Part shown: one piece after another, positions 3,062 to 43,148 of the stretch | Layout of the letters: every line of letters begins with the position of its first letter | Position numbering within the stretch: the first letter of the stretch is position 1 | Virus record (IMG/VR): IMGVR_UViG_2526164633_000017 | DNA: 43,220 nt | Source of the DNA: a virus | Taxonomy: Duplodnaviria; Heunggongvirae; Uroviricota; Caudoviricetes | Strand: one strand, 5' to 3' | Position numbers and translations under genes: made by a program | Notes under the pieces: model-generated | What the model was told of the DNA's origin: nothing | Database searches by the model: none | What the model saw: the letters and a program-made list of their open reading frames with translations, nothing else

Positions 3062-3651
3062 TGCATTGGCCCCGTGGTTCCGCCGCTATCGCCACGGTGG
3101 ATATGCTTATCCGTCGATTTGCCATTGATGATGGCATCCGGGGCAGTAATATTGCTGTCGAACTGGCTTTTACCTTTAACGCCCAGACCTTTCTGGATCT
3201 CAACGTCGCCGGTAAACGTGGTTCTGGGTGTGTCAACGGTCATACTTTCATCAGCGTAAACCTCAACCGTTTTACAGGTAATGATGCAGCGTCCGTCCTT
3301 TGTCAGCCTGATACGATGCCCCTCGTGGTGGTAAATGCCAGCATCACCCGGTTCAAGATTTGTCGGGCGGTAGCGGCGGTCTTCCACCACAACGGCAATC
3401 CCCTGATCACGTTGTGCACCCACACAGGCAATCAGCGCCTCTGCGCCCGGCAGAGGAACGCTGAAATGCCCGTAATTTTGCAGGCGCTCCACTTCATCAG
3501 ATTCCTCATCATCCAGCAGACCAACCTGCAGGTTCTGAACCTTTCGTCCGTCGTTAATCACGTTAACAACGGCACGCGCAAGCATCAGGCGCACACGACG
3601 CATCAGCGGCATCAGCAGGCGGTTCATGGCGGAATCATTTACTCTTTCCAC
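3058..3651 (-). CDS. Baseplate assembly protein V / spike (Mu gp45-like)
   Basis: 197-aa ORF in baseplate cluster, gene order. Confidence 0.7.
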   Translation of the reverse strand: MERVNDSAMNRLLMPLMRRVRLMLARAVVNVINDGRKVQNLQVGLLDDEESDEVERLQNYGHFSVPLPGAEALIACVGAQRDQGIAVVVEDRRYRPTNLEPGDAGIYHHEGHRIRLTKDGRCIITCKTVEVYADESMTVDTPRTTFTGDVEIQKGLGVKGKSQFDSNITAPDAIINGKSTDKHIHRGDSGGTTGPMQ

Positions 3652-4778
3652 GGCGGCGTTTTCTCCGGGTGTCTGCGATAATAATCTTCAACCAGCGCAT
3701 CAATACCGCCGTTACTGTCGCCGCCTTTCCTGTTTTTACGGTCGCTTTCAACCGGCACCAGAAAGCCTTCGCGTGGTGCAAGGCTGACGCGGGTTTTCAG
3801 CCCGTCCTGGTCATTCAGTATCAGGGTGACTTTGCTGACCAGTAATTCCGTGGTTTTGATGGCATATTTCGAGGCATCAATAGTGACCAGCAGGTTCGGC
3901 ATCCAGAGTTGCCCGTCCTTGCGAGTCCATCCGTCAATTTCTGCCTCAAAGGTGATGGATTTTGCCAGTCTGCGGCGTTGCTCACGCAGGGCGCGGGCCT
4001 GTGCATCCTTCGCCGTAATCTTGCTGTCAGCAATGATGATCATCGGTCTGTAACGGGTCACATCACTGTCAGTGGCGGTCCCTTTCCGGGAGACGATACT
4101 TTTCGCATCAATATCATCACCCTCAGCACCATTTGCGCGGGCATACCCCTTGACGGTGTATTCGCTGAACCGGTCGCGGAAGTCTTCCTCAAAATCCAGC
4201 GTCAGCAGATTTTCTCCGAGAACCAGCTCATCAGTGGCTGTGCTGGCAGCCCGGCTGAATACCAGCTCTCCGGCGGCATTGCTGGTCATCAGTACACCGC
4301 GTGCGCGGGAGGCACGCACCAGCGCCTCATAAACGGTTTCTGAATGGTCCAGCGTGAAGCCGGGAAAAGCTGCCGAACTTTCCTTATCGGAAAGCTCCCA
4401 GCGAACGGTAACGCCATAAGGAGCGCACAGGTCACGCGCAATCTGCTCCAGTGTGCGTTTTTTCCACTGTCCGCCACTGTAAACGGCAGCACAGTCAATC
4501 AGGTCAGCCGTTTTGTCACGTCCGGCGACAGTGATTTTCATACTGTCAGCGGTCATCTGGCGTCGCCGTGAATCGATATAACCGGTGCAGACAATCTGCC
4601 CCTCGATTTCGAGCGTGAACTTCTTCCCCGGAGCCAGCCCGGATAAATCCGTGCCCGGTGGCACGTTCACCCCCAGCTCAAAATATCCGGCTACGGATTC
4701 AATCGAGCGGGTGACAGAGACTGACGTCCAGCCGGTAAAAAGCCTGCCATCCGTTCGCAGCGTGACGGTATTACTCAT
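3639..4778 (-). CDS. Baseplate hub / late control D-like protein (Mu gp44-like)
   Basis: 379-aa ORF following the DNA circulation gene; order and size fit. Confidence 0.75.
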
Positions 4779-5522
4779 TAATCACCTCAATACTGACACC
4801 ACCGGGAACAAACAACGGGTTGCTGATACCGTTCCTGCGGGCCAGCCGTTGCCAGTTCCGGCTGTTTCCTGTGTAACGGTACAGGGCCACCATTGCAGGC
4901 ATCGTCTCCGGCAGGCGGTGCGTTTCACTGCCCGCCAGTTGCAGCCCGCGTTTTTCCAGGTCGGCAACAACCAGCAGACGCAGTTGCGTAAGCTGAACGC
5001 TGTCTGTCGAAAAGCCCTGCTCAGATGCCGTCAGAATGACGGTATCCAGTGCAGCCCCCAGCATGGCGGCTGTTTTTCCGATATCGGACACACTTTCAAA
5101 TACCGGGGGCGTGGCTGTACCACTGTCTGAAAAGGATACCTGTGAAAAACCGCCGTCCGGGGTTATGGCAGTTAACTGTAACTGTCCCTGTGTGACGGTA
5201 GCGGATGTGCTGCTGGCCCCGATGGCTGTGCCGGTTGTGGTGGACGGGGCATCCAGTACAGGTGCACGGGCGGCATTATCCATCCGGCGACTGAAATCCA
5301 GTGCCGCAGTCAGTGCCTGGCTGGCAGCTTCTGCCCGGTATGTCTGCGCCGCTGCCAGCATGACGTAGTTCAGTGTGGCAATATTTTTTTCTGCAACCGG
5401 ACTGTTGTACGAGGTTGTGATTGTCCCCTGTCTGCCTGCGGTGGCAGCATGGCGACGTTCGAATCGCTGCGCCAGACGGTTCCATGTGGAAAATGCTGTC
5501 CGGGTATCGCATAACGATGAAA
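4771..5522 (-). pseudogene. DNA circulation protein (Mu N/gp43-like), C-terminal fragment, separated from its 5' part by IS66-family insertion
   Basis: ORF 4771..5361 is in-frame continuation up to the IS boundary at 5522; the N-terminal fragment lies at 7977..8720; combined length about 498 aa matches an intact gene. Confidence 0.75.
5515..5522. repeat. Target site duplication CGATGAAA (left copy) of IS66-family insertion
   Basis: Identical 8-mer CGATGAAA at 5515-5522 and 7977-7984 directly flanking the element ends. Confidence 0.85.
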
Positions 5523-5559
5523 GTAAGCGTGCAGCAAGAACCGTATTGACGGGGATGTG

Positions 5560-7098
5560 TTATTCAGTCGGCAGTGCTACGCGCCAGGGGAGCAGTTCGC
5601 CGACCCGGTTTATCGGCCAGTCGGCTATGACGTCAAGGACATAGCGGAGGTAGCTTTCTGGCTCCACTCCGTTCAGTTTGCACGTCCCGATCAGGCTGTA
5701 CAGCAGCGCTCCCCGCTCTCCTCCATGATCCGAACCGAAGAACAGGTAGTTTTTGCGGCCCAGACTGACCATCCGCAACGCATTTTCAGCGATGTTATTG
5801 TCCGCCTCAGCCCAGCCATCATCTGCATAGTACGTCAGCGCCGGCCACTGGTTCAGGGCGTATGCGAACGCTTTCGCCAGTTCTGAGTGTCGCGACAGGG
5901 TTTTCATCTTTTCACGCAGCCAGCTTTCCAGGGATTTCAGCAGCGGTTTCGTTTTCAACTGACGTTCGGCAAGGCGCTGCTCCGCCGTCATTCCCCTTAT
6001 CTCTGCCTCGATGGCGTACAGTTCGCCGATCCGTTTCAGCGCTTCCTCCGTCAGGGCTGACGGGGTGCGAACGTGCACATCGTGGATTTTACGGCGGGCG
6101 TGAGCCCAACAGGCGGCTTCCGTTATCCGGCCATCCCGGTACAGCTCGTTGAACCCGGCGTATGCATCCGCCTGCAGTACACCACTGAACCCCGCAAGAT
6201 GGGTCTGCGGATGGATGCCTTTTCTGTCCGGGCTGTAAGCGAACAACACCGCCGGCGCCAGCGTTGACCCGGCGTTACGGTCGTCACGAACGTAGGTCCA
6301 TAACCGCCCGGTCTTCGTTTTCTTATTGCCTGGCAACAGCACCGGGACAGGCGTGTCATCAGCATGGAGCTTACCGTCAGTCAGCACATAGTCCTGAAGC
6401 GCTTCTTCCAGCGGTGACAGTAGCCGGCAGCATGCATCCACCCAGCCCGACAGCAGTGAACGACTCAGCTCCACGCCCTGGCGGCCGTACATTTCAGACT
6501 GGCGGTACAGCGGGGTGTGCTCTGCATACTTTGAGATCAGCACGCGGGCCAGCAGCCCCGGTCCTGCGATACCCCGCTCGATGGGCCGTGAAGGCGCGGG
6601 GGCCTGCACGATGGCATCGCACTGAGTACAGGCATGCTTTTCACGTACAGTCCGGATAACCCGGAAGGCGCTGCGCATCAACTCCAGCTGTTCGGCGGCA
6701 TCCTCACCCAGATAGCTCAGTGAGCCTCCACATTCCGGGCAGCATGATGCTGCCGGCAGCAGCCGTTTTTCATCGCGGGGGAGTGATTCGGGGAACGGTT
6801 TGCGGGTGCGGGTTTGACGCAGCGGGCGCTGCACGGCCGGGTCGTCAACCCGACCGGTAAGGGTATCACTTTCTTTCTGAAGTGCCTTCAGGTCAGCTTC
6901 CATCTGTGCGATACGACGGGAGACTTTTTCGGAGCGGCTGCCGAAGTTCATCCGGCGCAGCTTATCCAGCTGTGCCTGCAGATGGTCTATTTCGCGTTCA
7001 CGCTCGTTCAGCTTTTCCAGCAGGGCACGGTTCAGCGCCTCCTGTTCGGCAAGGAGACGTTTCAGTGCATTGATATCGTCAGGAAGTGAGCTGCTCAT
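5560..7098 (-). CDS. tnpC: IS66-family transposase (large ORF)
   Basis: 512-aa ORF with N-terminal leucine-zipper-like region, CPECGG zinc-finger motif and DDE-type core; typical third ORF of IS66 elements. Confidence 0.8.
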
Positions 7099-7146
7099 AC
7101 CGGGTATATTACCAGGCTCATTCAGCGTCGACCAGGATAAAGAGGC

Positions 7147-7494
7147 TTACAACATAGTCAGGGACGTAAGCAGTCTTTTAGGCTGCCGCCAGTCGATACC
7201 TTCCAGCAGCATCGCCAGCTGTGCCGGTGTGAGGAACACTTTGCCATCCCGGGCTGACGGCCAGGCGAAGCGGCCGCGCTCCAGCCGTTTGGTCAGCAGA
7301 CACAGTCCATCGCCGGTAGACCAGAGGAGCTTTACCTGACTGCCATTACGCCCACGGAAGATAAAAACGTGACCTGACATCGGATCGTCTTTCAGCGTCG
7401 TCTGCACCTTTGCCGCCAGGCCGTTGAAGCCGTTTCTCATATCGGTGATGCCAGCGACCAGCCAGATCTTTGTCCCTGATGGTAATGGGATCAA
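7147..7494 (-). CDS. tnpB: IS66-family accessory protein (Orf2/TnpB)
   Basis: 115-aa ORF MIPLPSGTKIWLVAGITDMRNGFNGL..., overlaps upstream ORF stop; IS66 second ORF. Confidence 0.8.
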   Translation of the reverse strand: MIPLPSGTKIWLVAGITDMRNGFNGLAAKVQTTLKDDPMSGHVFIFRGRNGSQVKLLWSTGDGLCLLTKRLERGRFAWPSARDGKVFLTPAQLAMLLEGIDWRQPKRLLTSLTML

Positions 7495-7895
7495 CGTTTG
7501 AGCTCCCGTATCAGCAGGTTCAGGATATTTTCGCTGATGGCACCATTCAGACGGAGTGATCCGTGCCGGAACGTCACTTCACAGCTGATATTGAGTGATT
7601 CAGGTGTCGCAGCAGCTACAGGTTGTGACCGGGGGGAGGTTGTAGGGACAACATCTTCGGCATCAAGTGTTATCGGGAGCAGCTCAGGCACGTTGTTTTC
7701 TGTTGTTGAAGGAGGACGTAGTTTTCCTTCGCGCCAGTACTGGCGCCACTTGAACAGCAAATTATCGTTGATCCCATGCTCACGAGCGAGTTGCGCTACG
7801 GAGATCTCTGGTCGATGCGAGAGTTCAACCATTTTGATTTTGAACTCAACGGGATAATTAGGGCTTTTTTTACGCACTGCGGTTAATGATTTCAT
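7491..7895 (-). CDS. tnpA: IS66-family accessory protein (Orf1/TnpA, HTH)
   Basis: 134-aa ORF with HTH-like segment (SVAQLAREHGINDNLLFKWRQ); first ORF of IS66 arrangement. Confidence 0.8.
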   Translation of the reverse strand: MKSLTAVRKKSPNYPVEFKIKMVELSHRPEISVAQLAREHGINDNLLFKWRQYWREGKLRPPSTTENNVPELLPITLDAEDVVPTTSPRSQPVAAATPESLNISCEVTFRHGSLRLNGAISENILNLLIRELKR

Positions 7896-7976
7896 GGATA
7901 GCGTCCACCATATTTGGTGTCCACTATTCTCTCAGGAATTTCAGGATCTGCCAGACGGTGCTGAGACGACGCTTAC

Positions 7977-7984
7977 CGATGAAA
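7977..7984. repeat. Target site duplication CGATGAAA (right copy)
   Basis: See left copy at 5515-5522. Confidence 0.85.
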
Positions 7985-8720
7985 CGCCGGACAGCGCCCC
8001 CATCAGCGAGGAGGCCAGCATGGCAGGCTGGTTAATCAGGCTGGTCACAGAGCCTTTCATCGCAGAAAGCGATCCCATCAGACCGCTGACAGTCTGCGTA
8101 ACCCCCAGATTGTCCACCGCATCACTGATATCATCGATGACACCGGTTACAGCTTCCATCACGGCGGTTGCCGCCGCAGTGCCATCTTTTACGGTCTGCC
8201 AGACAGAGGACAGCGTATCTCCCAGAGAACCGGTTACAGCAACGGCCTGTGCCGGTACGGCTGCACTGGTGTCTGTCTCTGCGTCCGGGGCAGTATCCTG
8301 CAACGACGGATAAACGGTAACGGTGAACGCGTAATAATTCAGTTCATCCGCTTTAGTGCGGCATTCCCATGAATCCACCATGACGTCCACAGTGCCGAAA
8401 TCAGGATGTACCAGCTCACCGCTACCCGGAGCATCAAGAGCATCCATCAGCGCACCCGCTTCATCTCTGGCTGTTTCTGCGTTGCTGTTCAGAATGCAGG
8501 CGCTGAATGTACGGGAGCGAAGCTTTTTCCCCAGGTCATTGACGCCGCCGGTATCACGTAACGGGTACTCGCGTTTAACCAGGCGACGTCCGCCAGCCTG
8601 TTTTTGCTCCTCGATGACGAGAAACGGCACGTTACGGAACGTGCCTTTGCCGGTTGTTTTCCTGCCTCCACCGGTTTTATCCCGGACAGCATTAACGACA
8701 TTTAAAGCATCTTCAAACAT
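7977..8720 (-). pseudogene. DNA circulation protein (Mu N/gp43-like), N-terminal fragment truncated by IS66-family insertion
   Basis: ORF 7941..8720 runs from its ATG into the IS right end and terminates 36 nt inside the element. Confidence 0.75.
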
Positions 8721-8724: not shown

Positions 8725-10797
8725 TTACCAGCCCGTAATGTAGTTATCGCCCGCGTAAATATTCAGCCCCATACCGTCCTCGGTGACGCGGGAACTGGTC
8801 AGACGTAACCCCTCGCCAAGTTCGACGCGCAGCGAGGCTTCCGCATTGACTTTTTGTTCCTGCGGTTCCTTATCCGTGGCCGTCCATTTCTGATACAGGT
8901 CGGTTACAAAACCGCCCAGATACTCCCCGGCGACACTGCCCAGCGTGGCACCGGCAACCGTACCCAGCGGTCCGGCAAGGCTGCCAACGGCACCGCCGAG
9001 CCATGCACCGGCTGTACTGCCAATTGCGCCTGCTTTTTCATGGGTTGACGCCTGCTCATCCATCAGGACGGGGGCAAGCTGGAGTGCCCCCATTACCGGG
9101 CCACCCAGACGTGACAACGCACGACCGGCACCTTTCCCCATCCAGCCCAGCGCCCCGGCACCTTTTGTCACAACCCGACCGATCGCACTGCCTGCAAGTT
9201 TGTTTCCGATACCGGAAAACCACCCGCCAGCGGCACGCCCGGCATCAGCCAGCTTTCCGACCGTTCCCGTAACCAGTTGCCCGGCAGCACTGCCTGCAAG
9301 CCTGCTCAGAAGACCGGATTTACCGGGTAAAGGTAATGGTGCAGGCCGTGCCGTTACCGGTACGCCGGGTGGGGGTAATGCCAGTACAGGGCGTGGTGCA
9401 GGTAATGCCAGCGGCTGTGGCCCGGACAGCAATAACGGCTGGCGGGGTAACAGCGGGGCCATTCTTCCGCCGCTCCGTACGCGACGACCGCCGCCACTCC
9501 CGTAGCCACCAAATCCACGGGGCCAGTTGATGACAAACACACGCTGAATGCCGATACCCTGCAACAGCGTCTCAGACGTCATGGCATCCGGGACCGGCAG
9601 CCCTGCCTGCCCACGTTTGCGGTTTCGCATCCAGCGCCACATACGACGCCCGGTTTTAAACGGATAACTGGCAACCTGCCATGAGGGTTTTGCCACGGCC
9701 CAGCCTGCTCTCAGGGCTTTATTGGCAAGCCAGACAGACACCAGAACAGCAGCCAGTTTTTTCAGGCTGACAATATTCTGGTCAACCCATGCCAGCGCAT
9801 CTTTACCCGGTTTCAGCCAGCGCCATAACTCCTGCGCCGCGATTTTTACCGTTCTGAACGTGGTCAGAAATTTCTGACCAATGTTTTCTGCCAGTGCGTC
9901 AAGTTCCCCGGATTTATCCGCCATGTCGTGCCAGTTAAGCACCCGGCGCATCTCGTTCTTGATTTCTTCAAAGGGGCCGCTGTTTGCCACCTTTATGCGA
10001 AATTCAAGCAGGTTGGCTTCCATCTGGGCGAACATCCCGTCCCAGGAGTTCATCGCACTGGCCTGTGCACCTTTTGACTGTTCTGACAGCGTTCTGAATA
10101 CCGTCAGAATGGATTTCAGGCCCAGCTTGCCCTTTGTACCCAGATCACGGATTTTTTTAACGTCCGTTCCCGTTGCATCCGCCAGCGCCTGATAAACGTT
10201 GATACCGTAACCGGTCAGCAGGTTGGCATCCGCCGCTGTGATTTGCTGGCGGGCAAACATCTGTTTCAGTTGCAGTGAGGCACCCTGGGCAGTGGGTAAA
10301 TCCCAGCCGTGCATGGCCCCCTGATCCTGCAACATGGTGATGAACTGTTTCGTCTGTTCATCCGTCATGCCGAAGCCTTTCGACGAACGGATCTCATCCA
10401 GAACACCACTCAGCCCCCACGTGGTGTCCTTCGCGTTCTGCTTTGCCCAGGCCATCATGGCCTGCGCTCTGACCTTATCGCCGTGATACAGCGAGTTCAT
10501 GGCGATGATCTGCTGCTCACGCTGGGCGGCTGCACCAATAAACAGTTTATTGGCGGTGTAACCCACGCCAGCGATACCCAGCGCCCCGGCTGACAGCATT
10601 CGGAATGTACGGGTTGACAGTGAACCCATTCTGTCAATGGCACCAGAAACGCGCACAACCTCCATACGCAGGGCACGAAGGGAACTTTGCCCGCTACGGG
10701 ACAGGGCGTTTATCTGGTTCGAATACTGGCGGGAACGCCGGGAAAGATTGCCATTAAGATCAATAATGACAGACGCCTTTAAGCGTTTCCCGGTCAT
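8725..10797 (-). CDS. Tail tape measure protein
   Basis: 690-aa ORF, Gly/Ala/Pro-rich C-terminal half, located between tail chaperone/tube genes and baseplate genes. Confidence 0.85.
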
Positions 10798-27217: not shown

Positions 27218-27458
27218 CAATATCCTGGTCTGATAACCCCAGCCTGCGGCGGATGTACTCCTCGCGGGCTGTTTCATTTTGCAGTGCCACTACTGTTTCC
27301 AGACGATTCATTTCGCGGTTGATAATGTCACGGACTTCTCTGGCGGTGAGATTATGCTTAATACCATATTCAACGATAGCGCGAACACGTTCCAGCATCC
27401 CTTTTTCAGCCATGACGTTATCAATATTAAGGGGAGTAAATTTATCTTCATTGTTCAT
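27156..27458 (-). CDS. Hypothetical early protein
   Basis: 100-aa ORF, translationally coupled to upstream ORF. Confidence 0.55.
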   Translation of the reverse strand: MNNEDKFTPLNIDNVMAEKGMLERVRAIVEYGIKHNLTAREVRDIINREMNRLETVVALQNETAREEYIRRRLGLSDQDIVTDAHVFEAFEIRQHLGLTN

Positions 27459-31133: not shown

Positions 31134-32072
31134 TTAATTACGCAGCAGCGTTGAAATATCAACGTCCAGGTCTAATTCACGGAAAGCCTGACGCAGATAA
31201 TCTTCGTTAACACGCTCACCTTTACCGTGAGCCGTCATGGCGGCAAGGCGAAGTGAATGATTCAGAATGCGAAGCGCACCTGGTTTCTGCGCAATCTGCT
31301 GTAATAACTCCAGTTCTTTTTCACCGTTAATCTGCCAGGCATCCGCAATAGCTTTTACATCGGCTTTTTTGGTTTTATTAATTGCAGTGCGCTTTGCAAT
31401 ACGGGAAAACAGACGGGCAAATTCAACCGTTCTGTTACCCCCCGTCATATTTGAATAAACCCGGTGATTTCCCATCAGCACAAGGCCAATACGGGTTGAT
31501 TCCTGTAACAGGCGGAGTTCTTCCAGAACCTCGGCACCAAGATGATCAGCTTCGTCGATGATAACCAGCCCCTGTGTACCTTCAAGGCGACGTCGCAGGG
31601 CGCGGGAGAGCGGCCCTTTACGGCGTGGTGCGTCATTCATTCCCAGCTCAAACGCCAGTTCAGTAAGACATTCCAGAACGCTGGCACAGGATGGCGTAAT
31701 GGTGATCATCCAGACATTGTTATTGGTGCGGCGATATTCACGGGCCGCTTCGGTTTTACCCACACCAGGATTGCCACATACAACAGCAATACTTTCAGTC
31801 AGGCTGGCAAAACGCATACTTGTCCAGATTTGTTTTACCGTCTGCGTTTCCACAAAGCGGGGCGGCTCAGGTAGTTCTGCAACTGCATGATATTTTTCCA
31901 GCCAGCGTTGCAGAATTTGTGAAACACGCTCGTTATCCCCGTTGTACTTATCATTGATAAAACTACTGATAGTTCCGGTAGAAAGCCCGCTCTCAAGAGC
32001 AATTTGTTTAAAGGTGGTTTCTTCATTTTCTACAAGCGTGCGCAGTTCTGCGCGAATATCGGAAATATTCAT
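31134..32072 (-). CDS. B: DNA transposition ATPase (MuB-like, AAA+)
   Basis: 312-aa ORF with Walker A GNPGVGKTE and Walker B VIIDEADHL; N-terminal HTH; immediately after transposase gene. Confidence 0.9.
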   Translation of the reverse strand: MNISDIRAELRTLVENEETTFKQIALESGLSTGTISSFINDKYNGDNERVSQILQRWLEKYHAVAELPEPPRFVETQTVKQIWTSMRFASLTESIAVVCGNPGVGKTEAAREYRRTNNNVWMITITPSCASVLECLTELAFELGMNDAPRRKGPLSRALRRRLEGTQGLVIIDEADHLGAEVLEELRLLQESTRIGLVLMGNHRVYSNMTGGNRTVEFARLFSRIAKRTAINKTKKADVKAIADAWQINGEKELELLQQIAQKPGALRILNHSLRLAAMTAHGKGERVNEDYLRQAFRELDLDVDISTLLRN

Positions 32073-32110: not shown

Positions 32111-34204
32111 TTAAATGGCTTTTTTACGTCTGTTCTGTTCCAGAATATCCAGCGAATGATTCAGATATTCATCACGCTCAGTTTCGTATTCATCATCATG
32201 CTCTTCCTCACACCTCAACGGCTGAACGGTCACCACATTACCAACAGGGCGATAAACATTATCCAGCCAGGGTTCTATCGTTTTTTGTTCAATAACCTGA
32301 ATACCTTCATCCTCAGCATCACGTATTTTTTCCTCAGCACGCTTGCGCATTCCTTTAATACGTTGCTGTTGTTTGTGATATTCAGCCGTAACAGGAAAGG
32401 CTGCGCGTTTATTGCCGTTCCATATCGCCTCACAGATAAAGCTACCGTCCTTACGGCGTACCGTAATTCGCTCGGCATCGTGAATGTCATAGCTGATAAG
32501 TACCTTGCGACCATGTTCATCACGTAGCTCTGGCGCGTAGTAAATATTGTTCAGCCACTGGATTTCGCAGCGTCTTACCGGACGCTCCACCATCGGGCGG
32601 AACATGTCACGCAGCTCAATATCACTCAGCCACTCAATTTCAGTGTCTTCTTCCGCTAAGCGTTTTTTTCTGAACTCTGCCGGGCTGTAATGTTTTCCGT
32701 TTGGTTTCATCGGCAATTCAGAATGTGGGCGGTTGTTGTACCACTCCACCCCCTCACGGATAGCCTCAATCAGTTCTGACCAAGACGGCAGCTCGCGCAT
32801 TGCGGCTTTCTGACGGGCGCTCAGTGGCTTGTCCTGTTGCAGGGCATTAAACGCTGAACGCAGATCACGATTAAGTACTCGCAACGATTCCCGGTCAGCC
32901 CCCTTGCCGAAATAGGTGCGATACCTCCTTGCTATACGCATCGGTAACGTCCGGTTCAGGCGCTCAATAATGCCGCGTCCCTGCGGATTTCCCGCAATAC
33001 CAGTGGGGTGGTTAATCCCCAGGCGGGGCAGAATCCCGACGATCTCTTTATCCAGCATATCTGCCGTTTCACCGGAACCATTATCCGAGTAATACAGGAA
33101 TGGTTTTCCGTGATTGCGAATGCCGTGTTGTATCGCCCCGGCAACAGCGAACACGTTCTCCGCAAGATCAAGACTCCAGCCAACCACAAACCGGGTTCCA
33201 CCGTCGATCACAAACGTAACTTCCGGTGAAAATGGACGCCCGTGAACCGGATGCGCACATTTCAGCTTCATACCGTGACCGTCACCAATCCAGACATAAT
33301 TCACCGGCATAGCTGTCCAGTCGCGGCGGGTGAATCCTTCAAGCTGACGGTATTCACTGCCGGTAACGCGCCCTTTTTGTTTCACCACTTCCGGCAGTTT
33401 TTTCATGGCATACCGGACAACATCATAGGAAGGCATCACCTCCAGCATGTATGGTTCGTCCGCATGGCGACGCTGCCAATCAGCGACAAAATCCTCGTAT
33501 GCTTCTGACATAGGCCTGCCGTTAGCCTGACGATACTGCGCCAGAAATTCAGGCAGCCAGCTAATTTCTTCCGGTTTTATTTCGTCGCGCTTTCCTGGTG
33601 CCAGTAACAGCAATCGTTCTGCGGCATTCTGTGCTTTGTTAAACGCAGCTATCCAACGTTTGAGCGTAATTGCGCTCAGAGTTCGCTCTTTCCCTTTACG
33701 GGCATTAGCAGTAATGACCAAAGATTCCAGGCGTTCTTCCAGGTTACCCTGCGCTAACCGCGACACAATAAAACGTATAGCGCTGGCACAACTGAATCCC
33801 GGCTCCTGGCTAATTCGTAGAACTTCACAGACAAGAGCAATACGCGCTTCTGCAACTTTACGTTGATTTTCCGTAAGCGCATTCAGACGCTCTTCTACCA
33901 ATTGTGGCGAACCGCGATATGCCTCAACAGGCTGTACAACATTTTGTTTGCGTTCACGCTTTACAGGAGGCTGGGTAGTTATCTCCTGCGGGGCGGTTGC
34001 CATCAGTTGAGCTACATGGCGCTCACGTAACGCCCGTTGTGTAACCGGAGGGAGGCAGTCGATGCTGTATTCAATGGTTTTTGAACCCGCACGTTTGCGC
34101 CTGAAATGCTCAGATGAGGCCAGTTTCCTTATGGAATACCGCACCCCTTGCGCAGTTCCCGGCATACCCGGTAGCCCTACAAGCTCATTAACTGACACAA
34201 ACAT
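32111..34204 (-). CDS. A: DDE transposase (MuA family)
   Basis: 697-aa ORF; N-terminal winged-helix-like DNA-binding region, DDE-type core (IGDGHG...), C-terminus ...DEYETERDEYLNHSLDILEQNRRKKAI. Confidence 0.9.
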   Translation of the reverse strand: MFVSVNELVGLPGMPGTAQGVRYSIRKLASSEHFRRKRAGSKTIEYSIDCLPPVTQRALRERHVAQLMATAPQEITTQPPVKRERKQNVVQPVEAYRGSPQLVEERLNALTENQRKVAEARIALVCEVLRISQEPGFSCASAIRFIVSRLAQGNLEERLESLVITANARKGKERTLSAITLKRWIAAFNKAQNAAERLLLLAPGKRDEIKPEEISWLPEFLAQYRQANGRPMSEAYEDFVADWQRRHADEPYMLEVMPSYDVVRYAMKKLPEVVKQKGRVTGSEYRQLEGFTRRDWTAMPVNYVWIGDGHGMKLKCAHPVHGRPFSPEVTFVIDGGTRFVVGWSLDLAENVFAVAGAIQHGIRNHGKPFLYYSDNGSGETADMLDKEIVGILPRLGINHPTGIAGNPQGRGIIERLNRTLPMRIARRYRTYFGKGADRESLRVLNRDLRSAFNALQQDKPLSARQKAAMRELPSWSELIEAIREGVEWYNNRPHSELPMKPNGKHYSPAEFRKKRLAEEDTEIEWLSDIELRDMFRPMVERPVRRCEIQWLNNIYYAPELRDEHGRKVLISYDIHDAERITVRRKDGSFICEAIWNGNKRAAFPVTAEYHKQQQRIKGMRKRAEEKIRDAEDEGIQVIEQKTIEPWLDNVYRPVGNVVTVQPLRCEEEHDDEYETERDEYLNHSLDILEQNRRKKAI

Positions 34205-34623: not shown

Positions 34624-35169
34624 ATGGATAAGCTGAAAGGAAAGTCACTTTCTTTGCCGGAAGTGACAAAAGAAAGTATCCCGGAGCGTTTGAGAGAATT
34701 AATTGGAAAAAGAAGTGTAAGGGCTGCTGCGAAAGATTGGGGGTTGTCTTTTTCTACTTTAAACAATTACCTGACGCGAGGTACTGAACCTTCACTCAGT
34801 GTGGCTCGGCAGATAGCTGCAATTGAAGGGGTTACTATCGAATGGATATGTGGATCACATGATGATTCATATGAGAATCACCCAATTTCAACTAACACGC
34901 ATAATGAGAATACAAAACTCATTATGAACATCATTAACGCCTTGGATGCAAAGGATATTGAGCGACTATCTAAGACTCTTGCCCTCAATGGTGCTAAGTA
35001 TCTGACTCAAATGTTGGAACCCGAAAATCAAGGCTTACTGCGTCTTGAAGGACGAAAACGTGTCGCCGCGCTGCTATTAGATGATTTACCTGATGAGCGT
35101 ATCAGAGAGATTTTGGAAGAAATTGAGAGCAGCAAACTCTCAAGTAGTGTAAAATCGAGAGCGGGCTAG
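34624..35169 (+). CDS. c: Prophage repressor (Mu c-like)
   Basis: 181-aa ORF divergent from ner-A-B operon; HTH-like segment (VRAAAKDWGLSFSTLNNYLTRG); RBS AGGAAAG upstream. Confidence 0.75.
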   Translation: MDKLKGKSLSLPEVTKESIPERLRELIGKRSVRAAAKDWGLSFSTLNNYLTRGTEPSLSVARQIAAIEGVTIEWICGSHDDSYENHPISTNTHNENTKLIMNIINALDAKDIERLSKTLALNGAKYLTQMLEPENQGLLRLEGRKRVAALLLDDLPDERIREILEEIESSKLSSSVKSRAG

Positions 35170-35233: not shown

Positions 35234-35389
35234 AGTATCAAATATTTTTTCGTTTTTAGCTTTCTTTGCGATGGTAGTATCAAATCGCATGTTGTGCGCA
35301 TAACACTGTTTTATGTCATAACTGTTTGTTTTATCCCATCAAATCCCGTTTAATCCACTTTCCTCCCGGATTTTTCACCAGTATCAAAT
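35234..35389. repeat. Three direct repeats (G)TAGTATCAAAT near the Mu-like prophage end; candidate transposase end-binding sites (L1-L3-like)
   Basis: Copies at 35234-35243, 35277-35286 and 35380-35389; distances from the inferred end (about 35395) are roughly 10, 115 and 155 bp, resembling the L1/L2/L3 spacing of Mu attL. Confidence 0.55.
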
Positions 35390-35421
35390 AATTTACCTCT
35401 CTATACGACTATGAGGAGAAA

Positions 35422-35727
35422 TTGCTTATTGCCAGATGGGAACTGACAGCAGAACAGGCTGTTACACAGCAGTTAAAAAATGAGGTGTCAAAAGGAAAAC
35501 TGATTGACACCGGGTTCTGTATTTTTGCCCTCAGTAAGCTGGCAATGGCGTTATCCAGTACGCTTGATTCCATCCCTTTATCCATGCAGCGACAGTTTCC
35601 TGATTTAACACCGCGCCATCTTGACCATCTGAAAACCCTTATTGCGAAGGGGGCAAATCAGTGTGCGCGGGCAGGGGATAAATTACCGGATTTACTCGAT
35701 GAATATATCAGAGCAACAACTGAATAA
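35422..35727 (+). pseudogene. nu1: Lambdoid terminase small subunit (Nu1-like), C-terminal half only; 5' part displaced by Mu-like prophage insertion
   Basis: Reading frame matches the C-terminal half of lambda Nu1 as I recall it (...FCIFALSKLA...LDSIPLSMQRQFP...LLDEYI...); frame hits a stop at 35389-35391 inside the terminal repeat region; no ATG start (track start is TTG). Confidence 0.65.
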
Positions 35728-37627
35728 TATGATGGCTGCCGTTTCGGTTGCGCTGCAGCCTCTGGTCAGGGTTGTACCAATGACGGCAGTTGAATGGGCT
35801 GATCAAAATTATTATCTGCCTAAAGAATCTTCATATGGTGAGGGAGAATGGAAAACGCTGCCATTCCAGATCGCCATTATGAACTGTATGGGTAACGACC
35901 AGGTTCGCACGGTTAACCTGATTAAATCTGCCCGTGTTGGCTATACAAAGATGTTGCTGGGGGTGGTCGGGTATTTTATTGAGCATAAATCCCGAAACAG
36001 TCTGCTTTTTCAGCCCACGGATTCTGCCGCTGAAGATTTTATGAAGTCTCACGTGGAGGCGACGATTCGGAACGTGCCATGCCTGAAAGACCTTTCCCCA
36101 TGGCTGGGTCGTAAACATCGTGACAATACTCTCACGCTGAAACGCTTTTCATCGGGCGTCGGTTTCTGGTGCCTGGGCGGCGCTGCCGCCAAAAACTACC
36201 GTGAAAAATCCGTGGACGTGGTCTGCTATGACGAACTTTCCTCGTTCGAGCCGGATGTCGAAAAAGAGGGCTCGCCAACCCTGCTGGGGGATAAGCGTAT
36301 TGAGGGGTCGGTGTGGCCAAAATCCATTCGCGGCTCGACGCCTAAAATCAAAGGCACCTGCCAGATCGAAAAAGCCGCTAACGAGTCGGCGCATTTTATG
36401 CGTTTTTATGTGCCCTGCCCGCACTGTGGGGAGGAGCAGTATCTGAAATTTGGCGATGAGTCCACGCCTTTTGGGCTTAAATGGGAGAAGGACAGCCCTG
36501 AAAGTGTTTTCTACCTCTGTGAACATCATGGCTGCGTGATCCATCAGTCTGAGCTTGACCAGAGCAACGGGCGGTGGATCTGTGAAAACACGGGCATGTG
36601 GACCCGTGACGGTCTGACGTTTTTCAGCGCCCGGGGTGATGAAATTCCGCCGCCGCGCTCCATCATGTTCCATATCTGGACGGCGTACAGTCCGTTCACC
36701 ACCTGGGTACAGATTGTCTATGACTGGCTGGATGCACTGAAAGATCCCAACGGCCTGAAAACCTTTGTGAACACCACGCTGGGCGAGACCTGGGAAGAGG
36801 CCGTGGGCGAAAAACTCGATCACCAGGTACTGATGGATAAGGTGGTGCGTTACACGGCGGCGGTGCCTGCCCGGGTGGTTTATCTGACGGCGGGCATTGA
36901 CTCGCAGCGAAACCGTTTTGAGATGTATGTCTGGGGATGGGCTCCGGGAGAGGAAGCCTTTCTGGTGGATAAAATCATCATTATGGGGCGTCCTGATGAG
37001 GAAGAGACGCTGTTACGTGTGGATGCGGCGATCAACAAAAAATACCGCCATGCGGATGGCACCGAAATGACTATTTCCCGTGTCTGCTGGGACACCGGGG
37101 GGATCGATGGTGAAATTGTTTATCAGAGATCAAAAAAACACGGTGTTTTCCGGGTGCTGCCGGTAAAAGGCGCATCTGTCTATGGCAAGCCGGTGATCAC
37201 CATGCCAAAAACCCGCAATCAGCGGGGCGTGTATCTGTGTGAAGTGGGAACGGATACCGCAAAAGAAATTCTCTATGCCCGTATGAAAGCCGATCCCACG
37301 CCTGCGGATGAAGCCACGTCGTATGCCATCCGTTTTCCTGATGATCCGGAGATTTTTTCGCAGACAGAGGCGCAGCAACTGGTGGCGGAAGAGCTGGTGG
37401 AGAAGTGGGAAAAAGGAAAGATGCGTCTGCTGTGGGATAACAAAAAGCGGCGTAACGAAGCGCTGGACTGCCTGGTGTATGCCTACGCGGCATTACGTGT
37501 GTCCGTGCAACGCTGGCAGCTTGATCTGGCTGTACTGGCAAAATCCCGGGAAGAAGAGACGACCCGGCCAACCCTGAAAGAACTGGCAGCGAAGCTGTCC
37601 GGAGGAGTGAATGGTTACAGTCGCTGA
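35699..37627 (+). CDS. A: Lambdoid terminase large subunit (gpA-like)
   Basis: ORF track 35642..37627; ATG at 35699 gives MNISEQQLNNMMAAVS...TAVEWADQNYYLPKES..., 642 aa, lambda A-like throughout. Confidence 0.9.
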   Translation: MNISEQQLNNMMAAVSVALQPLVRVVPMTAVEWADQNYYLPKESSYGEGEWKTLPFQIAIMNCMGNDQVRTVNLIKSARVGYTKMLLGVVGYFIEHKSRNSLLFQPTDSAAEDFMKSHVEATIRNVPCLKDLSPWLGRKHRDNTLTLKRFSSGVGFWCLGGAAAKNYREKSVDVVCYDELSSFEPDVEKEGSPTLLGDKRIEGSVWPKSIRGSTPKIKGTCQIEKAANESAHFMRFYVPCPHCGEEQYLKFGDESTPFGLKWEKDSPESVFYLCEHHGCVIHQSELDQSNGRWICENTGMWTRDGLTFFSARGDEIPPPRSIMFHIWTAYSPFTTWVQIVYDWLDALKDPNGLKTFVNTTLGETWEEAVGEKLDHQVLMDKVVRYTAAVPARVVYLTAGIDSQRNRFEMYVWGWAPGEEAFLVDKIIIMGRPDEEETLLRVDAAINKKYRHADGTEMTISRVCWDTGGIDGEIVYQRSKKHGVFRVLPVKGASVYGKPVITMPKTRNQRGVYLCEVGTDTAKEILYARMKADPTPADEATSYAIRFPDDPEIFSQTEAQQLVAEELVEKWEKGKMRLLWDNKKRRNEALDCLVYAYAALRVSVQRWQLDLAVLAKSREEETTRPTLKELAAKLSGGVNGYSR

Positions 37628-37817
37628 ACTGCAGGCGCTGCGTCAGGCGCGCCTTGATTTATTAACCGGTAAACGGGTGGTGTCTGTCCAGAAAGATGGT
37701 CGCAGAATTGAATATACGGCGGCTTCTCTGGATGAGCTTAACCGGGCGATCAATGATGCGGAGTCGGTACTGGGGACAACCCGACGTCGCCGTCGTCCGC
37801 TGGGAGTGAGGTTATGA
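37611..37817 (+). CDS. W: Head-tail joining protein (gpW-like)
   Basis: 68-aa ORF ...LLTGKRVVSVQKDGRRIEYTAASL... Confidence 0.85.
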   Translation: MVTVAELQALRQARLDLLTGKRVVSVQKDGRRIEYTAASLDELNRAINDAESVLGTTRRRRRPLGVRL

Positions 37818-39406
37818 AACGAACGCCTGTCCTGATTGATGTGAACGGCGTTCCGCTTCGTGAGAGTCTCAGCTACAACGGGGGCGGCGCAGGATTTGGC
37901 GGGCAAATGGCGGAGTGGTTGCCACCGGCGCAGAGTGTCGATGCGGCCCTGCTGCCCGCGTTGCGTCTGGGGAATGCCCGGGCAGATGATCTGGTGCGCA
38001 ATAACGGAATAGCGGCTAATGCGGTGGCCCTGCATAAGGATCACATTGTCGGGCATATGTTTCTGATCAGCTACCGTCCGAACTGGCGCTGGCTGGGGAT
38101 GCGGGAGACCGCAGCAAAAAGCTTTGTCGATGAGGTGGAGGCGGCCTGGTCGGAATACGCAGAAGGGATGTCTGGCGAGATCGACGTGGAAGGAAAACGC
38201 ACATTTACGGAGTTTATCCGTGAAGGTGTTGGCGTTCATGCGTTTAACGGCGAAATCTTTGTGCAGCCGGTCTGGGATACGGAAACCACGCAGTTATTCC
38301 GTACGCGTTTTAAAGCCGTGAGTCCGAAACGGGTGGACACGCCAGGACACGGTATGGGGAACCGTTTTCTGCGGGCCGGGGTGGAGGTCGATCGATATGG
38401 CCGTGCCGTTGCGTACCATATCTGTGAGGATGATTTTCCTCGCTCCGGGAGTGGACGATGGGAACGGATCCCGCGTGAACTTCCCACCGGGCGTCCGGCC
38501 ATGCTGCATATTTTCGAGCCGGTGGAGGACGGGCAGACCCGTGGGGCTAATCAGTTTTACAGCGTCATGGAACGGCTGAAGATGCTGGATTCCCTGCAGG
38601 CAACACAGCTTCAGTCGGCCATTGTGAAAGCCATGTATGCAGCGACGATTGAAAGTGAACTTGATACCGAAAAGGCCTTTGAATATATCGCCGGCGCGCC
38701 ACAGGAGCAGAAGGATAATCCGCTTATTAATATTCTGGAGAAGTTCTCCAGCTGGTATGACACGAATAACGTGACACTGGGCGGTGTCAAAATTCCGCAC
38801 CTTTTCCCTGGTGATGATCTGAAACTACAGACTGCGCAGGATTCAGACAATGGATTTTCTGCGCTTGAACAGGCGCTGCTGCGGTATATCGCCGCCGGTC
38901 TTGGCGTTTCCTACGAACAGTTGTCCCGTGATTACTCGAAGGTCAGTTATTCAAGTGCCAGGGCCTCTGCCAATGAGTCGTGGCGCTATTTTATGGGGCG
39001 GCGAAAATTTATTGCGGCCCGGCTGGCCACGCAGATGTTTTCCTGCTGGCTGGAAGAGGCACTTCTTCGGGGGATTATCCGTCCGCCACGGGCGCGTTTT
39101 GATTTTTATCAGGCGCGATCAGCCTGGTCACGGGCAGAGTGGATTGGTGCCGGAAGAATGGCCATTGACGGGCTCAAGGAGGTTCAGGAATCGGTGATGC
39201 GCATTGAGGCCGGACTGAGCACGTATGAGAAAGAGCTGGCGCTGATGGGCGAGGATTATCAGGACATTTTCCGCCAGCAGGTCAGGGAATCTGCAGAGCG
39301 GCAAAAAGCCGGACTCTCACGTCCGGTGTGGATAGCGCAGGCGTATCAGCAGCAGATAGCGGAGAGTCGCAGGCCGGAAGAGGAGACAACACCACGTGAG
39401 ACGTAA
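37814..39406 (+). CDS. B: Lambdoid portal protein (gpB-like)
   Basis: 530-aa ORF following W. Confidence 0.9.
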   Translation: MKRTPVLIDVNGVPLRESLSYNGGGAGFGGQMAEWLPPAQSVDAALLPALRLGNARADDLVRNNGIAANAVALHKDHIVGHMFLISYRPNWRWLGMRETAAKSFVDEVEAAWSEYAEGMSGEIDVEGKRTFTEFIREGVGVHAFNGEIFVQPVWDTETTQLFRTRFKAVSPKRVDTPGHGMGNRFLRAGVEVDRYGRAVAYHICEDDFPRSGSGRWERIPRELPTGRPAMLHIFEPVEDGQTRGANQFYSVMERLKMLDSLQATQLQSAIVKAMYAATIESELDTEKAFEYIAGAPQEQKDNPLINILEKFSSWYDTNNVTLGGVKIPHLFPGDDLKLQTAQDSDNGFSALEQALLRYIAAGLGVSYEQLSRDYSKVSYSSARASANESWRYFMGRRKFIAARLATQMFSCWLEEALLRGIIRPPRARFDFYQARSAWSRAEWIGAGRMAIDGLKEVQESVMRIEAGLSTYEKELALMGEDYQDIFRQQVRESAERQKAGLSRPVWIAQAYQQQIAESRRPEEETTPRET

Positions 39407-40901
39407 TCTTTCACACATTATTGCCGCAGCATTCAATGAACCGCTGCTTCTGGAGCCCGCCTATGCGCGGGTTTTCTTTTCGCGCTCGGGCGCGAGATGG
39501 GGGCAGCAAGTCTTTCGGTACCACAACAGCAGGTACAGTTTGATGCTCCCGGAATGCTGGCTGAAACGGACGAGTACATGGCCGGAGGTAAACGACCGGC
39601 CCGTGTTTACAGGGTGGTGAACGGTATTGCTGTACTGCCGGTGACCGGCACGCTGGTGCACCGGCTGGGGGGTATGCGGCCATTTTCCGGAATGACAGGC
39701 TATGACGGTATTGTCGCCTGTCTTCAGCAGGCAATGGCGGATAGCCAGGTGCGGGGCGTACTGCTGGACATTGACAGTCCGGGCGGGCAGGCCGCCGGCG
39801 CGTTTGACTGCGCTGACATGATTTACCGCCTCCGTCAGCAGAAGCCGGTCTGGGCACTGTGCAATGACACGGCCTGTTCTGCAGCCATGCTGCTGGCGTC
39901 GGCCTGCTCCCGACGGCTGGTTACCCAGACATCCCGTATCGGCTCCATTGGCGTGATGATGAGCCATGTCAGCTATGCCGGTCATCTGGCGCAGGCCGGT
40001 GTGGATATCACGCTGATTTACTCAGGGACGCACAAGGTGGATGGCAATCAGTTTGAAGCCTTACCGGCAGAGGTTCGCCAGGACATGCAGCAGCGCATTG
40101 ATGCGGCGCGCCGGGTGTTTGCCGAAAAAGTGGCGATGTTTACCGGTCTGTCTGTTGATGCCGTCACGGGAACAGAGGCCGCCGTTTTTGAAGGTCAGTC
40201 CGGCATTGATGCCGGGCTGGCGGATGAATTAGTCAATGCGTCGGATGCCATCAGTGTGATGGCCACGGCGCTGAACAGTAATGTCAGAGGAGGCACTATG
40301 CCGCAATTAACTGCAACGGAAGCCGCAGCGCAGGAGAACCAGCGAGTGATGGGGATCCTGACATGCCAGGAAGCGAAAGGACGTGAACAGCTTGCCACGA
40401 TGCTGGCAGGACAACAGGGCATGAGCGTTGAACAGGCCCGGGCGATTCTGGCCGCGGCGGCACCGCAGCAGCCGGTGGCATCCGCGCAGAGTGAAGCCGA
40501 TCGCATTATGGCGTGTGAAGAAGCGAACGGTCGTGAACAACTGGCGGCAACGCTGGCGGCGATGCCGGAGATGACGGTGGAAAAAGCCCGCCCGATCCTG
40601 GCTGCTTCACCGCAGGCGGATGCCGGACCCTCACTCCGTGATCAGATCATGGCACTGGATGAGGAAAAAGGGGCGTGAGGCGCAGGCTGAACAGCTGGCT
40701 GCCTGCCCGGGAATGACTGTGGAGAGCGCCCGGGCTGTGCTGGCTGCGGGATCAGGTAAGGCAGAACCGGTCTCTGCATCCACAACCGCCCTGTTTGAAC
40801 GCATCATGGCGAACCATTCACCGGCTGCGGTACAGGGTGGCGTGCCACAGACGTCAGCAGACGGTGATGCGGACGTGAAAATGCTCATGGCCATGCCATG
40901 A
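39396..40901 (+). pseudogene. C: Prohead protease/scaffold (gpC/Nu3-like) with at least two frameshifts and a triplicated C-terminal repeat
   Basis: N-terminus in frame 0 (39396..39620: MRRNLSHIIAAAFNEPLLLEPAYARVFF) shifts near 39476-39482 (T-run) to the frame of ORF 39497..40678; second shift at GAAAAAGGGG about 40660 to the frame of ORF 40620..40901. Confidence 0.7.
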
Positions 40902-40937
40902 AGTCAGTGCTGACCATCAACAGGAGGTTTTTACAAT

Positions 40938-41283
40938 ATGGTAACGAAAACATCACTGAACAGCGTGCGGAAGTACGTATTTTTGCCGGTAATGATCCGG
41001 CTCATACCGCCACAGGCAGCAGCGGGATTTCCTCGGCAACACCGGCACTGACGCCCCTGATGCTGGATGAAGCCAGCGGGAAACTGGTGGTCTGGGACGG
41101 ACAGAAAGCCGGTAGTGCAGTTGGCATACTGGTACTGCCGCTTGAAGGCACAGAGACGGTACTGACCTATTACAAGTCGGGGACCTTGCGACGGAGGCAA
41201 TCCGCTGGCCTGAAAGTGTGGATGAACACAAAAAGGCAAATGCCTTTGCCGGCAGTGCCCTGAGTCACGCGGCGCTGCCGTAA
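40938..41283 (+). pseudogene. D: Head decoration protein (gpD-like) with two frameshifts
   Basis: ATG at 40938 with RBS CAGGAGG; frame shifts at A-run near 40946 into frame of ORF 40898..41263 (…GNDPAHTATG…), then near 41190 into the frame that ends ...AFAGSALSHAALP at 41283. Confidence 0.65.
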
Positions 41284-41340
41284 CACGTTATCAGGCCACC
41301 GCGGTGGCCTGACTGATTTCTGAATGAAAGGAACTGATTT

Positions 41341-42367: not shown

Positions 42368-42375
42368 TCCGTGAG

Positions 42376-42404
42376 CGGGGGCGAAATGCCCCCGTGTCTT
42401 TTTT
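42376..42404 (+). terminator. Rho-independent terminator after capsid gene
   Basis: CGGGGGC-GAAAT-GCCCCCG followed by TGTCTTTTTT. Confidence 0.7.
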
Positions 42405-42418
42405 CACAGGGGGCTGAT

Positions 42419-42802: not shown

Positions 42803-43148
42803 TTTTCAGAATGCCTTTGATGCTGCCCTTGCCGGGGTGGACAGCACGATTGTTGAAGTGATGGGGCTCTGTGCGCAGTTCACCTCGGGGGCACAGTGTG
42901 GCAGCGAAGTTCAGGGGGTTTTTGACGATCCGGAGTCGCTGGGGTTTGCCGGTAGCGGGGTCCGTATTGAAGGAAGCTGTCCGTCATTATTTGTGCGGAC
43001 GGATACGGTGCGTGCCGTGCGGCGTGGTGACACGCTGACCATTAATGGTGAGACATTCTGGGTGGACCGTGTTTCTCCGGATGACGGAGGGAGTTGTTAT
43101 CTCTGGCTCAACCGTGGGCAACCACCCGCAGTTAACCGGCGACGATAA
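42795..43148 (+). CDS. FII: Head-tail connector protein (gpFII-like)
   Basis: 117-aa ORF ending ...FWVDRVSPDDGGSCYLWLNRGQPPAVNRRR. Confidence 0.85.
   Translation: MRDFQNAFDAALAGVDSTIVEVMGLCAQFTSGAQCGSEVQGVFDDPESLGFAGSGVRIEGSCPSLFVRTDTVRAVRRGDTLTINGETFWVDRVSPDDGGSCYLWLNRGQPPAVNRRR

Follow-up and report, generated by a model that had tools for sequence, protein, structure and literature searches.

The analysed window, a stretch of 43,220 bp taken as a whole, contains a Muvirus prophage in which ISEc22 has very probably transposed into gene N, making its usual 8-bp target-site duplication and leaving a clean disruption of a single gene. The element is a complete ISEc22 (IS66 family) of 2,454 bp at 5523..7976 on the minus strand, with its boundaries placed by comparison with empty sites, and its transposition genes lie in the orientation of gene N. 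It shows 100% nucleotide identity over the 2,454 bp with many E. coli copies annotated in RefSeq/NCBI as "IS66-like element ISEc22 family," and the name ISEc22 is used here by proxy through these NCBI-annotated copies rather than from the ISfinder reference.

Members of the IS66 family have imperfect terminal inverted repeats beginning 5'-GTAAGCG. The element starts with GTAAGCGT and ends with ACGCTTAC, such that GTAAGCGT opens both of its ends, and the terminal inverted repeats located by script at the tnpC-distal end (GTAAGCGTGCAGCAAGAACCGTATTGAC, 5523..5550, no strand assigned) and the tnpA-proximal end (...ACGGTGCTGAGACGACGCTTAC, 7949..7976, no strand assigned) are complementary at 8 of the 8 terminal bases and at about 17 of 28 positions overall. 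Three genes are carried on the minus strand. The tnpA gene (7491..7895) encodes a 134-aa accessory protein with an HTH_Tnp_1 domain (E, 9e-12), and tnpB (7147..7494), which overlaps the tnpA stop by 4 nt, encodes a 115-aa IS66 Orf2-like accessory protein (PF05717; E, 1.6e-38). Both lie upstream of tnpC (5560..7098) and share its orientation. The 512-aa tnpC product is an IS66-family DDE transposase with catalytic-domain, zinc-finger, leucine-zipper, and C-terminal motifs (PF03050 [E, 9e-107], PF13007, PF13005, and PF13817). The initial annotation, made from the sequence alone, had assigned the element to the IS66 family, and this assignment is borne out both by the Pfam search, which recovered DDE_Tnp_IS66, zf-IS66, LZ_Tnp_IS66, DDE_Tnp_IS66_C, TnpB_IS66, and HTH_Tnp_1, and by the complete identity with the ISEc22-annotated copies. 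In length, identity, tnpA-tnpB-tnpC layout, GTAAGCG termini, and 8-bp duplication, the element is like ISEc22 (relatives, ISEc8, IS679, and IS66); it does not differ from the known ISEc22 in itself, and the insertion site alone is particular. The copy in gene N is complete and presumably active. The literature on ISEc22 yielded incidental mentions only. The ISEc22 copy in O103 RM8385, which is bordered by pieces of lambdoid tail and head genes, was considered as a target-site comparison and set aside as uninformative on target choice, as it has no duplication and its flanks belong to two different genes.

The insertion lies at codon 246-248 of gene N (gp43) and splits the coding sequence after codon 248 by 2,454 bp plus the 8-bp duplication; the window contains no uninterrupted gp43 coding sequence. 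The 5' part of the gene (7977..8720, minus strand) comprises native codons 1 to 248 and carries the DNA_circ_N/tube-like domain (PF07157, residues 24 to 113; E, 5.6e-26), a linker, and a few helices. Its ORF runs into the end of the IS and stops at 7941, and the 259-aa product, called as a gene in three assemblies, differs from intact Mu gp43 in that it is predicted to consist of 248 native residues and 11 foreign, IS-encoded residues. The 3' part (4771..5522, minus strand) comprises codons 249 to 495 and the stop, with the duplicated 8 bp included. Within this 247-aa C-terminal piece, no in-frame start occurs before the ATG at 5361 (residue 300), which opens a remnant ORF of 196 aa (4771-5361) that is also called by gene callers. 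The in silico removal of 5523-7984 gave one uninterrupted ORF of 495 codons on the minus strand, close to the length of about 498 aa that had been estimated beforehand. The restored gene (1,488 nt) is 100% identical, with no gaps, to the intact "DNA circularization protein" genes of E. coli FDAARGOS_1059 and O111:H2 strain 12A. The restored protein matches Mu gp43 at 486 of 495 residues and aligns over its full length with PDB 9ki1, "DNA circularization protein N" (residues 1 to 495 to residues 1 to 495), a full-length collinearity with Mu gp43 that depends on the in silico removal of the IS. Together with the PF07157 match, these alignments uphold the earlier reading of a split Mu N-like gene. 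As in Mu, the restored gene is located between the tape measure protein gp42 (8725..10797, minus strand; upstream and intact by domain search and comparison with 12A) and the baseplate hub gp44, whose start it overlaps. The latter is encoded by the intact downstream gene P (3639..4778, minus strand), which has Gp44-like and GpP domains and a product that does not differ from its counterpart in the 12A prophage. A single pseudogene is the appropriate annotation for the two N fragments (7941-8720 and 4771-5361).

The perfect 8-bp duplication that had been proposed to flank the element was found by direct reading and by script at the same coordinates, with CGATGAAA at 5515..5522 and again at 7977..7984 (no strand assigned). 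Plus-strand copies of CGATGAAA occur twice in the 43,220-bp window, both at the flanks of the element, and the probability that two given 8-mers are identical by chance is about 1.5e-5. The intact gene N of other genomes contains CGATGAAA once, with an empty site carrying the single copy in two genomes, and because of this comparison, the element boundaries and the 8-bp duplication are fixed without the chance argument.

The prophage, which is of the Mu type and is nested in a lambdoid prophage, shows 97.7% nucleotide identity with Mu over 92% of 24.9 kb and 99.1% nucleotide identity with Yersinia phage vB_YpM_5, a plaque-forming phage with a contractile tail (PMC10434027). Compared with the prophage of O111:H2 12A, its nearest intact relative, the prophage has 0 gaps and 9 mismatches over approximately 33 kb. 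The comparison of 46 coding sequences with those of 12A detected no internal stop in any of them (N being read after excision), and the 45 other genes in the window have neither indels nor premature stops. Judged from the sequence of the window, the ISEc22 insertion is the only visible lesion and the one structural feature that sets the prophage apart from intact sister prophages. The repressor/transposase/B module had been described as apparently intact, and this is supported here, as the c, ner, A, and B protein sequences are identical to those of the 12A prophage and the A and B proteins are 99.4% and 100% identical, respectively, to those of vB_YpM_5.

It is unlikely, given this integrity, that the prophage was already or otherwise nonfunctional outside the window, with a damaged right end or rearranged flanks, and that the IS struck later, in DNA undergoing decay. 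The window ends within the invertible G segment, short of attR, and leaves out most of the G segment, gin, com/mom, and attR, and the sister prophage of FDAARGOS_1059 has pieces of two different genes at its flanks, which indicates that rearrangements occur at such prophages. In addition, all five of the intragenic differences from 12A outside the fiber gene are nonsynonymous. These differences were considered as a signal of decay and rejected, as the four that were polarized with vB_YpM_5 as the outgroup are divided between both lineages, two being derived in 12A and two in the lineage of the window. The absence of stops and indels from 45 of the 46 genes, with all visible parts intact, also argues against prior decay, as do the fiber genes S and U, which lie beyond the end of the window and are called full-length in a sister assembly (L003).

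The backbone of the prophage is a natural hybrid, in which Mu late genes and MuB are joined to a SuMu-like transposase that keeps only the last 29 residues of Mu A. Mu-type late genes (head, tail, and lysis) and MuB, which are expected of a Muvirus, are present, and B matches Mu B at 310 of 312 residues. A Mu-type transposase A, TG...CA termini, and a 5-bp target duplication, which are also expected, were not found. The A protein is only 25% identical to Mu A except in its last 29 residues and is closest to that of Haemophilus phage SuMu (43%). The prophage termini read TATAG...CTTTA, and duplications of 4 bp flank the prophage in two complete genomes. The right end of the 12A prophage is ...GCGCGCTTTA, with a 4-bp CGCG duplication relative to the empty ppsR site of K-12, and the sister prophage of FDAARGOS_1059, given its flanks, confirms the termini only and not the length of the duplication. 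In the source strain, the right end is predicted to lie in the lambdoid terminase small-subunit gene, next to a 4-bp GTCG duplication. This hybrid backbone, which uses TA...TA ends and 4-bp target duplications, is unusual, and its transposition module is a more interesting lead than the IS insertion.

Mu N amber mutants are tail defective, and N is a 64-kDa injected protein that circularizes the infecting DNA. Mu gp43 initiates the tail tube as a hexamer, and the helical bundles of the wedges are embedded, and thereby locked, in its C-terminal helix-rich/LysM domain (PMC11915804). The LysM fold was reported for Mu gp43, a nearly identical protein, on the basis of its cryo-EM structure (PMC11915804); in the C-terminal 248 aa of the gp43 studied here, a Pfam scan for LysM and tail-X domains gave no match at E values as high as 5. 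In the proposed course of events, a presumably active ISEc22 copy inserted precisely into codon 246-248 of N and produced the 8-bp target duplication. The C-terminal helix-rich/LysM domain of gp43 would hold the baseplate wedges on the hub, and gp43 would travel with the injected DNA and circularize it; given these roles, neither the assembly of baseplate and tail nor a productive infection should be possible with a truncated gp43. The earlier reading, that the split of N should abolish tail assembly and leave the prophage unable to form infectious particles, is a reasonable inference. The phenotype expected is like that of the classical Mu N amber mutants, namely, the loss of gp43 function, but the lesion differs in being an insertion instead of a nonsense mutation, which is not suppressible and would revert only by rare precise excision.

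A counterpart of the Mu late promoter P_P is located inside the 3' part of N (5113..5179, minus strand), where 66 of 67 positions are identical to the promoter feature at 27287-27353 of AF083977.1, which also lies inside N and is annotated as "late promoter, PMID 2522923." The IS is 343 bp upstream of this counterpart. Because P_P lies downstream of the IS inside N, the defect should be confined to N and should not be polar on the baseplate/fiber operon. The downstream baseplate and fiber genes should keep their own promoter, and from its sequence context, the lesion resembles the knockout of one gene only. Transcription of genes P to U (hub, spike, wedges, and fibers) would continue, and N supplied in trans could complement such a nonpolar lesion; a possible supplier would be another Mu-type prophage in the same genome. 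As no change affects the repressor, ner, A, B, lysis, or head genes, replicative transposition and lysis should still follow derepression, and a derepressed prophage would produce DNA-filled tailless heads and no plaque-forming particles. The absence of polarity and the retention of transposition competence are predicted from these features. The fuller proposal, that N::ISEc22 is a clean nonpolar knockout in a prophage still able to derepress, replicate by transposition, and lyse its host, is put forward tentatively, as a possibility with less than even chances.

It is very improbable that the split N still works as two proteins, an N-terminal tube initiator and a separately translated C-terminal LysM fragment, on the pattern of myophages that encode the tube initiator and the LysM/BH1a protein in separate genes. 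Many simple myophages do have a small hub-wedge filler protein distinct from the tube initiator (PMC11915804), and gene callers do recognize the 196-aa remnant ORF. However, the break after residue 248 lies inside the helix-rich domain and not at the flexible linker, and about 50 residues would be lost from the distal piece, which first starts at residue 300. P_P lies downstream of the start of the 196-aa ORF, and therefore no late promoter serves the C-terminal piece. Furthermore, of the 45 complete genomes with this gene, 44 have it unsplit.

A second draft assembly (L003) carries the insertion with the same flanks and with 0 mismatches over the IS, and a third (L005), which breaks at the IS copy, has the high-coordinate junction. 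The accessions of assemblies that share the insertion are GCA_000250275.2 and GCA_002542395.1. The source, GCA_000250235.2, is a draft assembly, ISEc22 is multicopy in related strains (median of 3 copies per genome, at up to 29 places), and breaks at IS copies are frequent in short-read assemblies, L005 being an example, but the misplacement of a multicopy IS into the contig by the assembler is hardly credible, since a misjoin would not yield an exact 8-bp target duplication at both junctions and both junctions recur in the independent assembly L003, with the high-coordinate one also in L005. The ISEc22 insertion, taken as a genuine event, is common to at least three public draft assemblies, and one of these has since acquired a SNP. 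The IS/N junction is present in none of 5,426 complete E. coli genomes, and the Mu/lambdoid junction is in no complete E. coli genome searched; therefore, the complete genomes do not include the source lineage. The isolates that have inherited the insertion form a small clonal group. The initial annotation had considered the insertion recent, which stands in the sense of evolutionarily young but not in the sense of a one-off event in this isolate, as it is already in at least three assemblies. Its presence in a few draft assemblies and its absence from the 5,426 complete genomes make it usable as a clonal marker.

The insertion is real, and the disabling of a prophage by an IS, here one that is common in E. 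coli, is an ordinary event. IS629-disrupted genes were reportedly described in the prophages of O157:H7 Sakai by Asadulghani et al. in 2009. The two cases are alike in that a resident multicopy IS disables a morphogenesis gene of an otherwise complete prophage, whereas the target here is a Mu-type transposable phage that is itself within a lambdoid prophage. As a further example of the inactivation of a prophage morphogenesis gene by a resident IS in a pathogenic-type E. coli, the insertion has little importance beyond annotation, where the prophage is to be scored as probably noninfectious even though 45 of its 46 visible genes are intact. If the proposed consequences are true, the clone carries a "headful but tailless" Mu, which could cause mutations and rearrangements from within the genome and could regain infectivity through N from another Mu-type prophage.

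The element that interrupts the tail gene is ISEc22, and the interrupted gene is Mu N, encoding the DNA circularization protein. The octamer CGATGAAA lies at 5515-5522 and 7977-7984, its only two plus-strand copies in the 43,220-bp window, and both direct reading and a script bear out the perfect 8-bp duplication described in the initial annotation. The 2454-bp stretch between the duplications begins with GTAAGCGT, ends with ACGCTTAC, and carries three minus-strand ORFs with Pfam matches: a 134-aa ORF (7491-7895) with HTH_Tnp_1; a 115-aa ORF (7147-7494), overlapping the former by 4 nt, with TnpB_IS66; and a 512-aa ORF (5560-7098) with DDE_Tnp_IS66, zf-IS66, LZ_Tnp_IS66, and DDE_Tnp_IS66_C. Complete E. 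coli genomes contain many copies with 100% identity to the full-length element; these copies are annotated as "IS66-like element ISEc22 family transposase," TnpA, or TnpB, and this identity, together with the Pfam set, confirms the assignment to the IS66 family. Among complete E. coli genomes, near-full-length matches occur in 2192, with a maximum of 29 places in one genome.

When 5523-7984 was deleted in silico by script, the minus strand regained one open frame of 495 codons, as had been predicted, and the flanking 8-mers were identical on re-reading. The restored 1488 nt align without gaps and with 100% identity to the intact "DNA circularization protein" genes of E. coli FDAARGOS_1059 and O111:H2 strain 12A. 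Since excision both restores the frame and recovers a known intact gene, neither a broken frame nor differing flanks stands against the interruption of N. The restored protein shares 486 of its 495 residues with Mu gp43, carries PF07157 (DNA_circ_N) at residues 24-113, and aligns end to end with the PDB 9ki1 chain "DNA circularization protein N." Its neighbors, the tape-measure gene (8725-10797) and the baseplate hub gene (3639-4778), are ordered as in Mu.

The window sequence is contig AIHB01000018.1 of assembly GCA_000250235.2. The N/IS junction is absent from every complete E. coli genome searched, and N is in one piece in 44 of the 45 complete genomes possessing the gene. Four contigs in public assemblies encode the truncated 259-aa product, of which 248 residues are native and the other 11 come from the IS end. 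Among these assemblies are GCA_000250275.2, where the entire insertion is identical, with equal flanks and 0 mismatches, and GCA_002542395.1, where the contig has the same junction and stops 76 nt into the IS; a mis-assembly is thus a very unlikely source of the insertion. A substitution at window position 15634 (P53S in the major head protein) is shared by the window and NMEO01000055.1 of GCA_002542395.1 and is absent from AIHD01000025.1 of GCA_000250275.2, while all three carry the IS. Therefore, P53S arose later, and the insertion predates the split of these isolates. The proposal that the insertion is recent holds on an evolutionary scale, with a perfect duplication, flanks equal to the intact allele, and an IS identical to other copies, but it must be qualified, as the insertion is an inherited clonal marker.

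The host prophage is, judging from sequence comparison, a true Muvirus and more than merely "Mu-like." Window positions 8000-32900 show 97.7% identity with phage Mu over 92% of the length and 99.1% identity over the entire length with Yersinia phage vB_YpM_5, which was isolated as a plaque-forming, lysogenizing phage with a contractile tail (PMC10434027). Positions 1-35407 align to the 12A prophage with the IS as the sole gap and nine mismatches, four of which fall within the first 63 bases, in the variable fiber region. None of the 46 annotated 12A prophage genes within the window differs in length or contains an internal stop here (N compared after excision), and the repressor-like, ner, A, and B proteins exactly match their 12A counterparts. 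Because this comparison is otherwise free of gaps and stops and the early proteins are unchanged, the IS is the only visible lesion. The repressor/transposase/B module had been considered apparently intact, and comparison with vB_YpM_5, a phage known to grow, agrees (A, 99.4%; B, 100%; ner, 100% protein identity); it is reasonable to suppose that the prophage may still transpose or be inducible. The repressor-like gene (34624-35169, plus strand; 181 aa; HTH_3) shares only 53% identity with its vB_YpM_5 counterpart, and this low value beside the 99 to 100% of ner, A, and B suggests that the common backbone here carries a different immunity type. The window breaks off within the invertible G segment, with gin, com/mom, and the right end all outside it, so the completeness of the prophage in the source strain cannot be demonstrated from the window. 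Positions 1-512 (tail-fiber gene, G segment; ~500 bases) align to the FDAARGOS_1059 prophage in the opposite orientation, and inversion of the G segment in the culture that was sequenced is the probable cause of the contig break.

In the Mu virion, cryo-EM shows gp43 as a hexameric tail-tube initiator, in which an N-terminal tube-like domain makes the first ring of the tube and is linked by a flexible loop to a helix-rich domain of eight helices and a LysM module (PMC11915804). The helix-rich domains of neighboring subunits surround the three-helix bundles of the wedge proteins and stabilize the wedge-hub connection, and gp43 enters the cell together with the DNA, which it then circularizes (PMC11915804). 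The insertion point follows residue 248 of N. Reading the domains from the N sequence, as PMC11915804 states no residue boundaries, we place the break beyond the Pfam N-terminal domain (24-113) and a low-complexity linker (~139-165), within the helical region. The truncated product would thus be missing the LysM module and the greater part of the helix-rich domain, and no in-frame start codon precedes residue 300 in the distal piece; for these reasons, neither a functional baseplate nor infectious particles are expected. Mu N mutants are classically tail defective, in agreement with the expected loss of infectivity.

The lesion should be a single-gene, trans-complementable knockout rather than a polar block of all tail genes. 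The Mu record AF083977.1 annotates a late promoter at 27287-27353 (citing PMID 2522923), inside N at gene nt 1080-1146 and ~330 bp upstream of the P start, and its counterpart at window positions 5113-5179 (minus strand) is identical at 66 of 67 positions. This promoter is 343 bp downstream of the IS, which interrupts N at nt 736-744, so the baseplate and fiber genes P to U should keep transcription from their own C-dependent promoter.

In pathogenic E. coli, prophages commonly have morphogenesis genes knocked out by an IS, and the insertion is nothing new in kind. E. coli O103 RM8385 has a further ISEc22 copy (L009, 2611-5064; 1 mismatch) that lacks a target duplication. On one side of it is a truncated minor-tail-U gene and on the other a truncated S49 peptidase gene, remnants of a lambdoid tail gene and head gene. 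Given these fragmentary flanks without a duplication, the arrangement fits an IS-mediated deletion within a lambdoid prophage.

The left end of the Mu-type prophage is at window position 35405, and 35405-43220 is a lambdoid prophage (terminase, portal, and capsid genes), 99.7 to 99.8% identical to prophages of O103, O26, and other strains. The Mu-type prophage is inserted at about nt 187-190 of the 510-nt lambdoid terminase small-subunit gene; therefore, an IS resides inside a Mu-type phage inside a lambdoid phage. The prophage termini, 5'-TATAGAGAGGTAAATTATTTGATAC ... GTATCAAATGATTTTGCGCGCTTTA-3', were found in four contexts for the left end and three for the right (window 35381-35405; related prophage ends in L002, at 11365 and 48570, and in L014, at 638 and 37560; and FDAARGOS_1059). 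These ends read TATAG...CTTTA, whereas those of canonical Mu read TG...CA, and the target duplication is 4 bp, in contrast to 5 bp for Mu, in the two complete genomes whose flanks both fall in one gene: CGCG in ppsR of 12A, verified against the K-12 empty site, and TAAG in mscM of JCKP02. The vB_YpM_5 paper is silent on termini and duplication length (PMC10434027). The sister prophage of FDAARGOS_1059 (4018000-4058000; 99.98% identity) lacks a duplication and is bordered by pieces of two different genes, an SDR oxidoreductase gene and ycjP, which suggests a prophage-associated chromosomal rearrangement.

The transposition module is not Mu's own but a hybrid. B (31134-32072, minus strand) is identical to Mu B at 310 of 312 positions, whereas transposase A (32111-34204, minus strand; 697 aa) shares only 25% identity with Mu A outside its last 29 residues, which match Mu A exactly and form the segment through which Mu A contacts MuB and ClpX. 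The recombination joint lies at the start of this Mu-identical C-terminal tail. Outside its own group, the closest phage transposase to A is that of Haemophilus phage SuMu (43%). As a lead, this hybrid module is more promising than the IS insertion.
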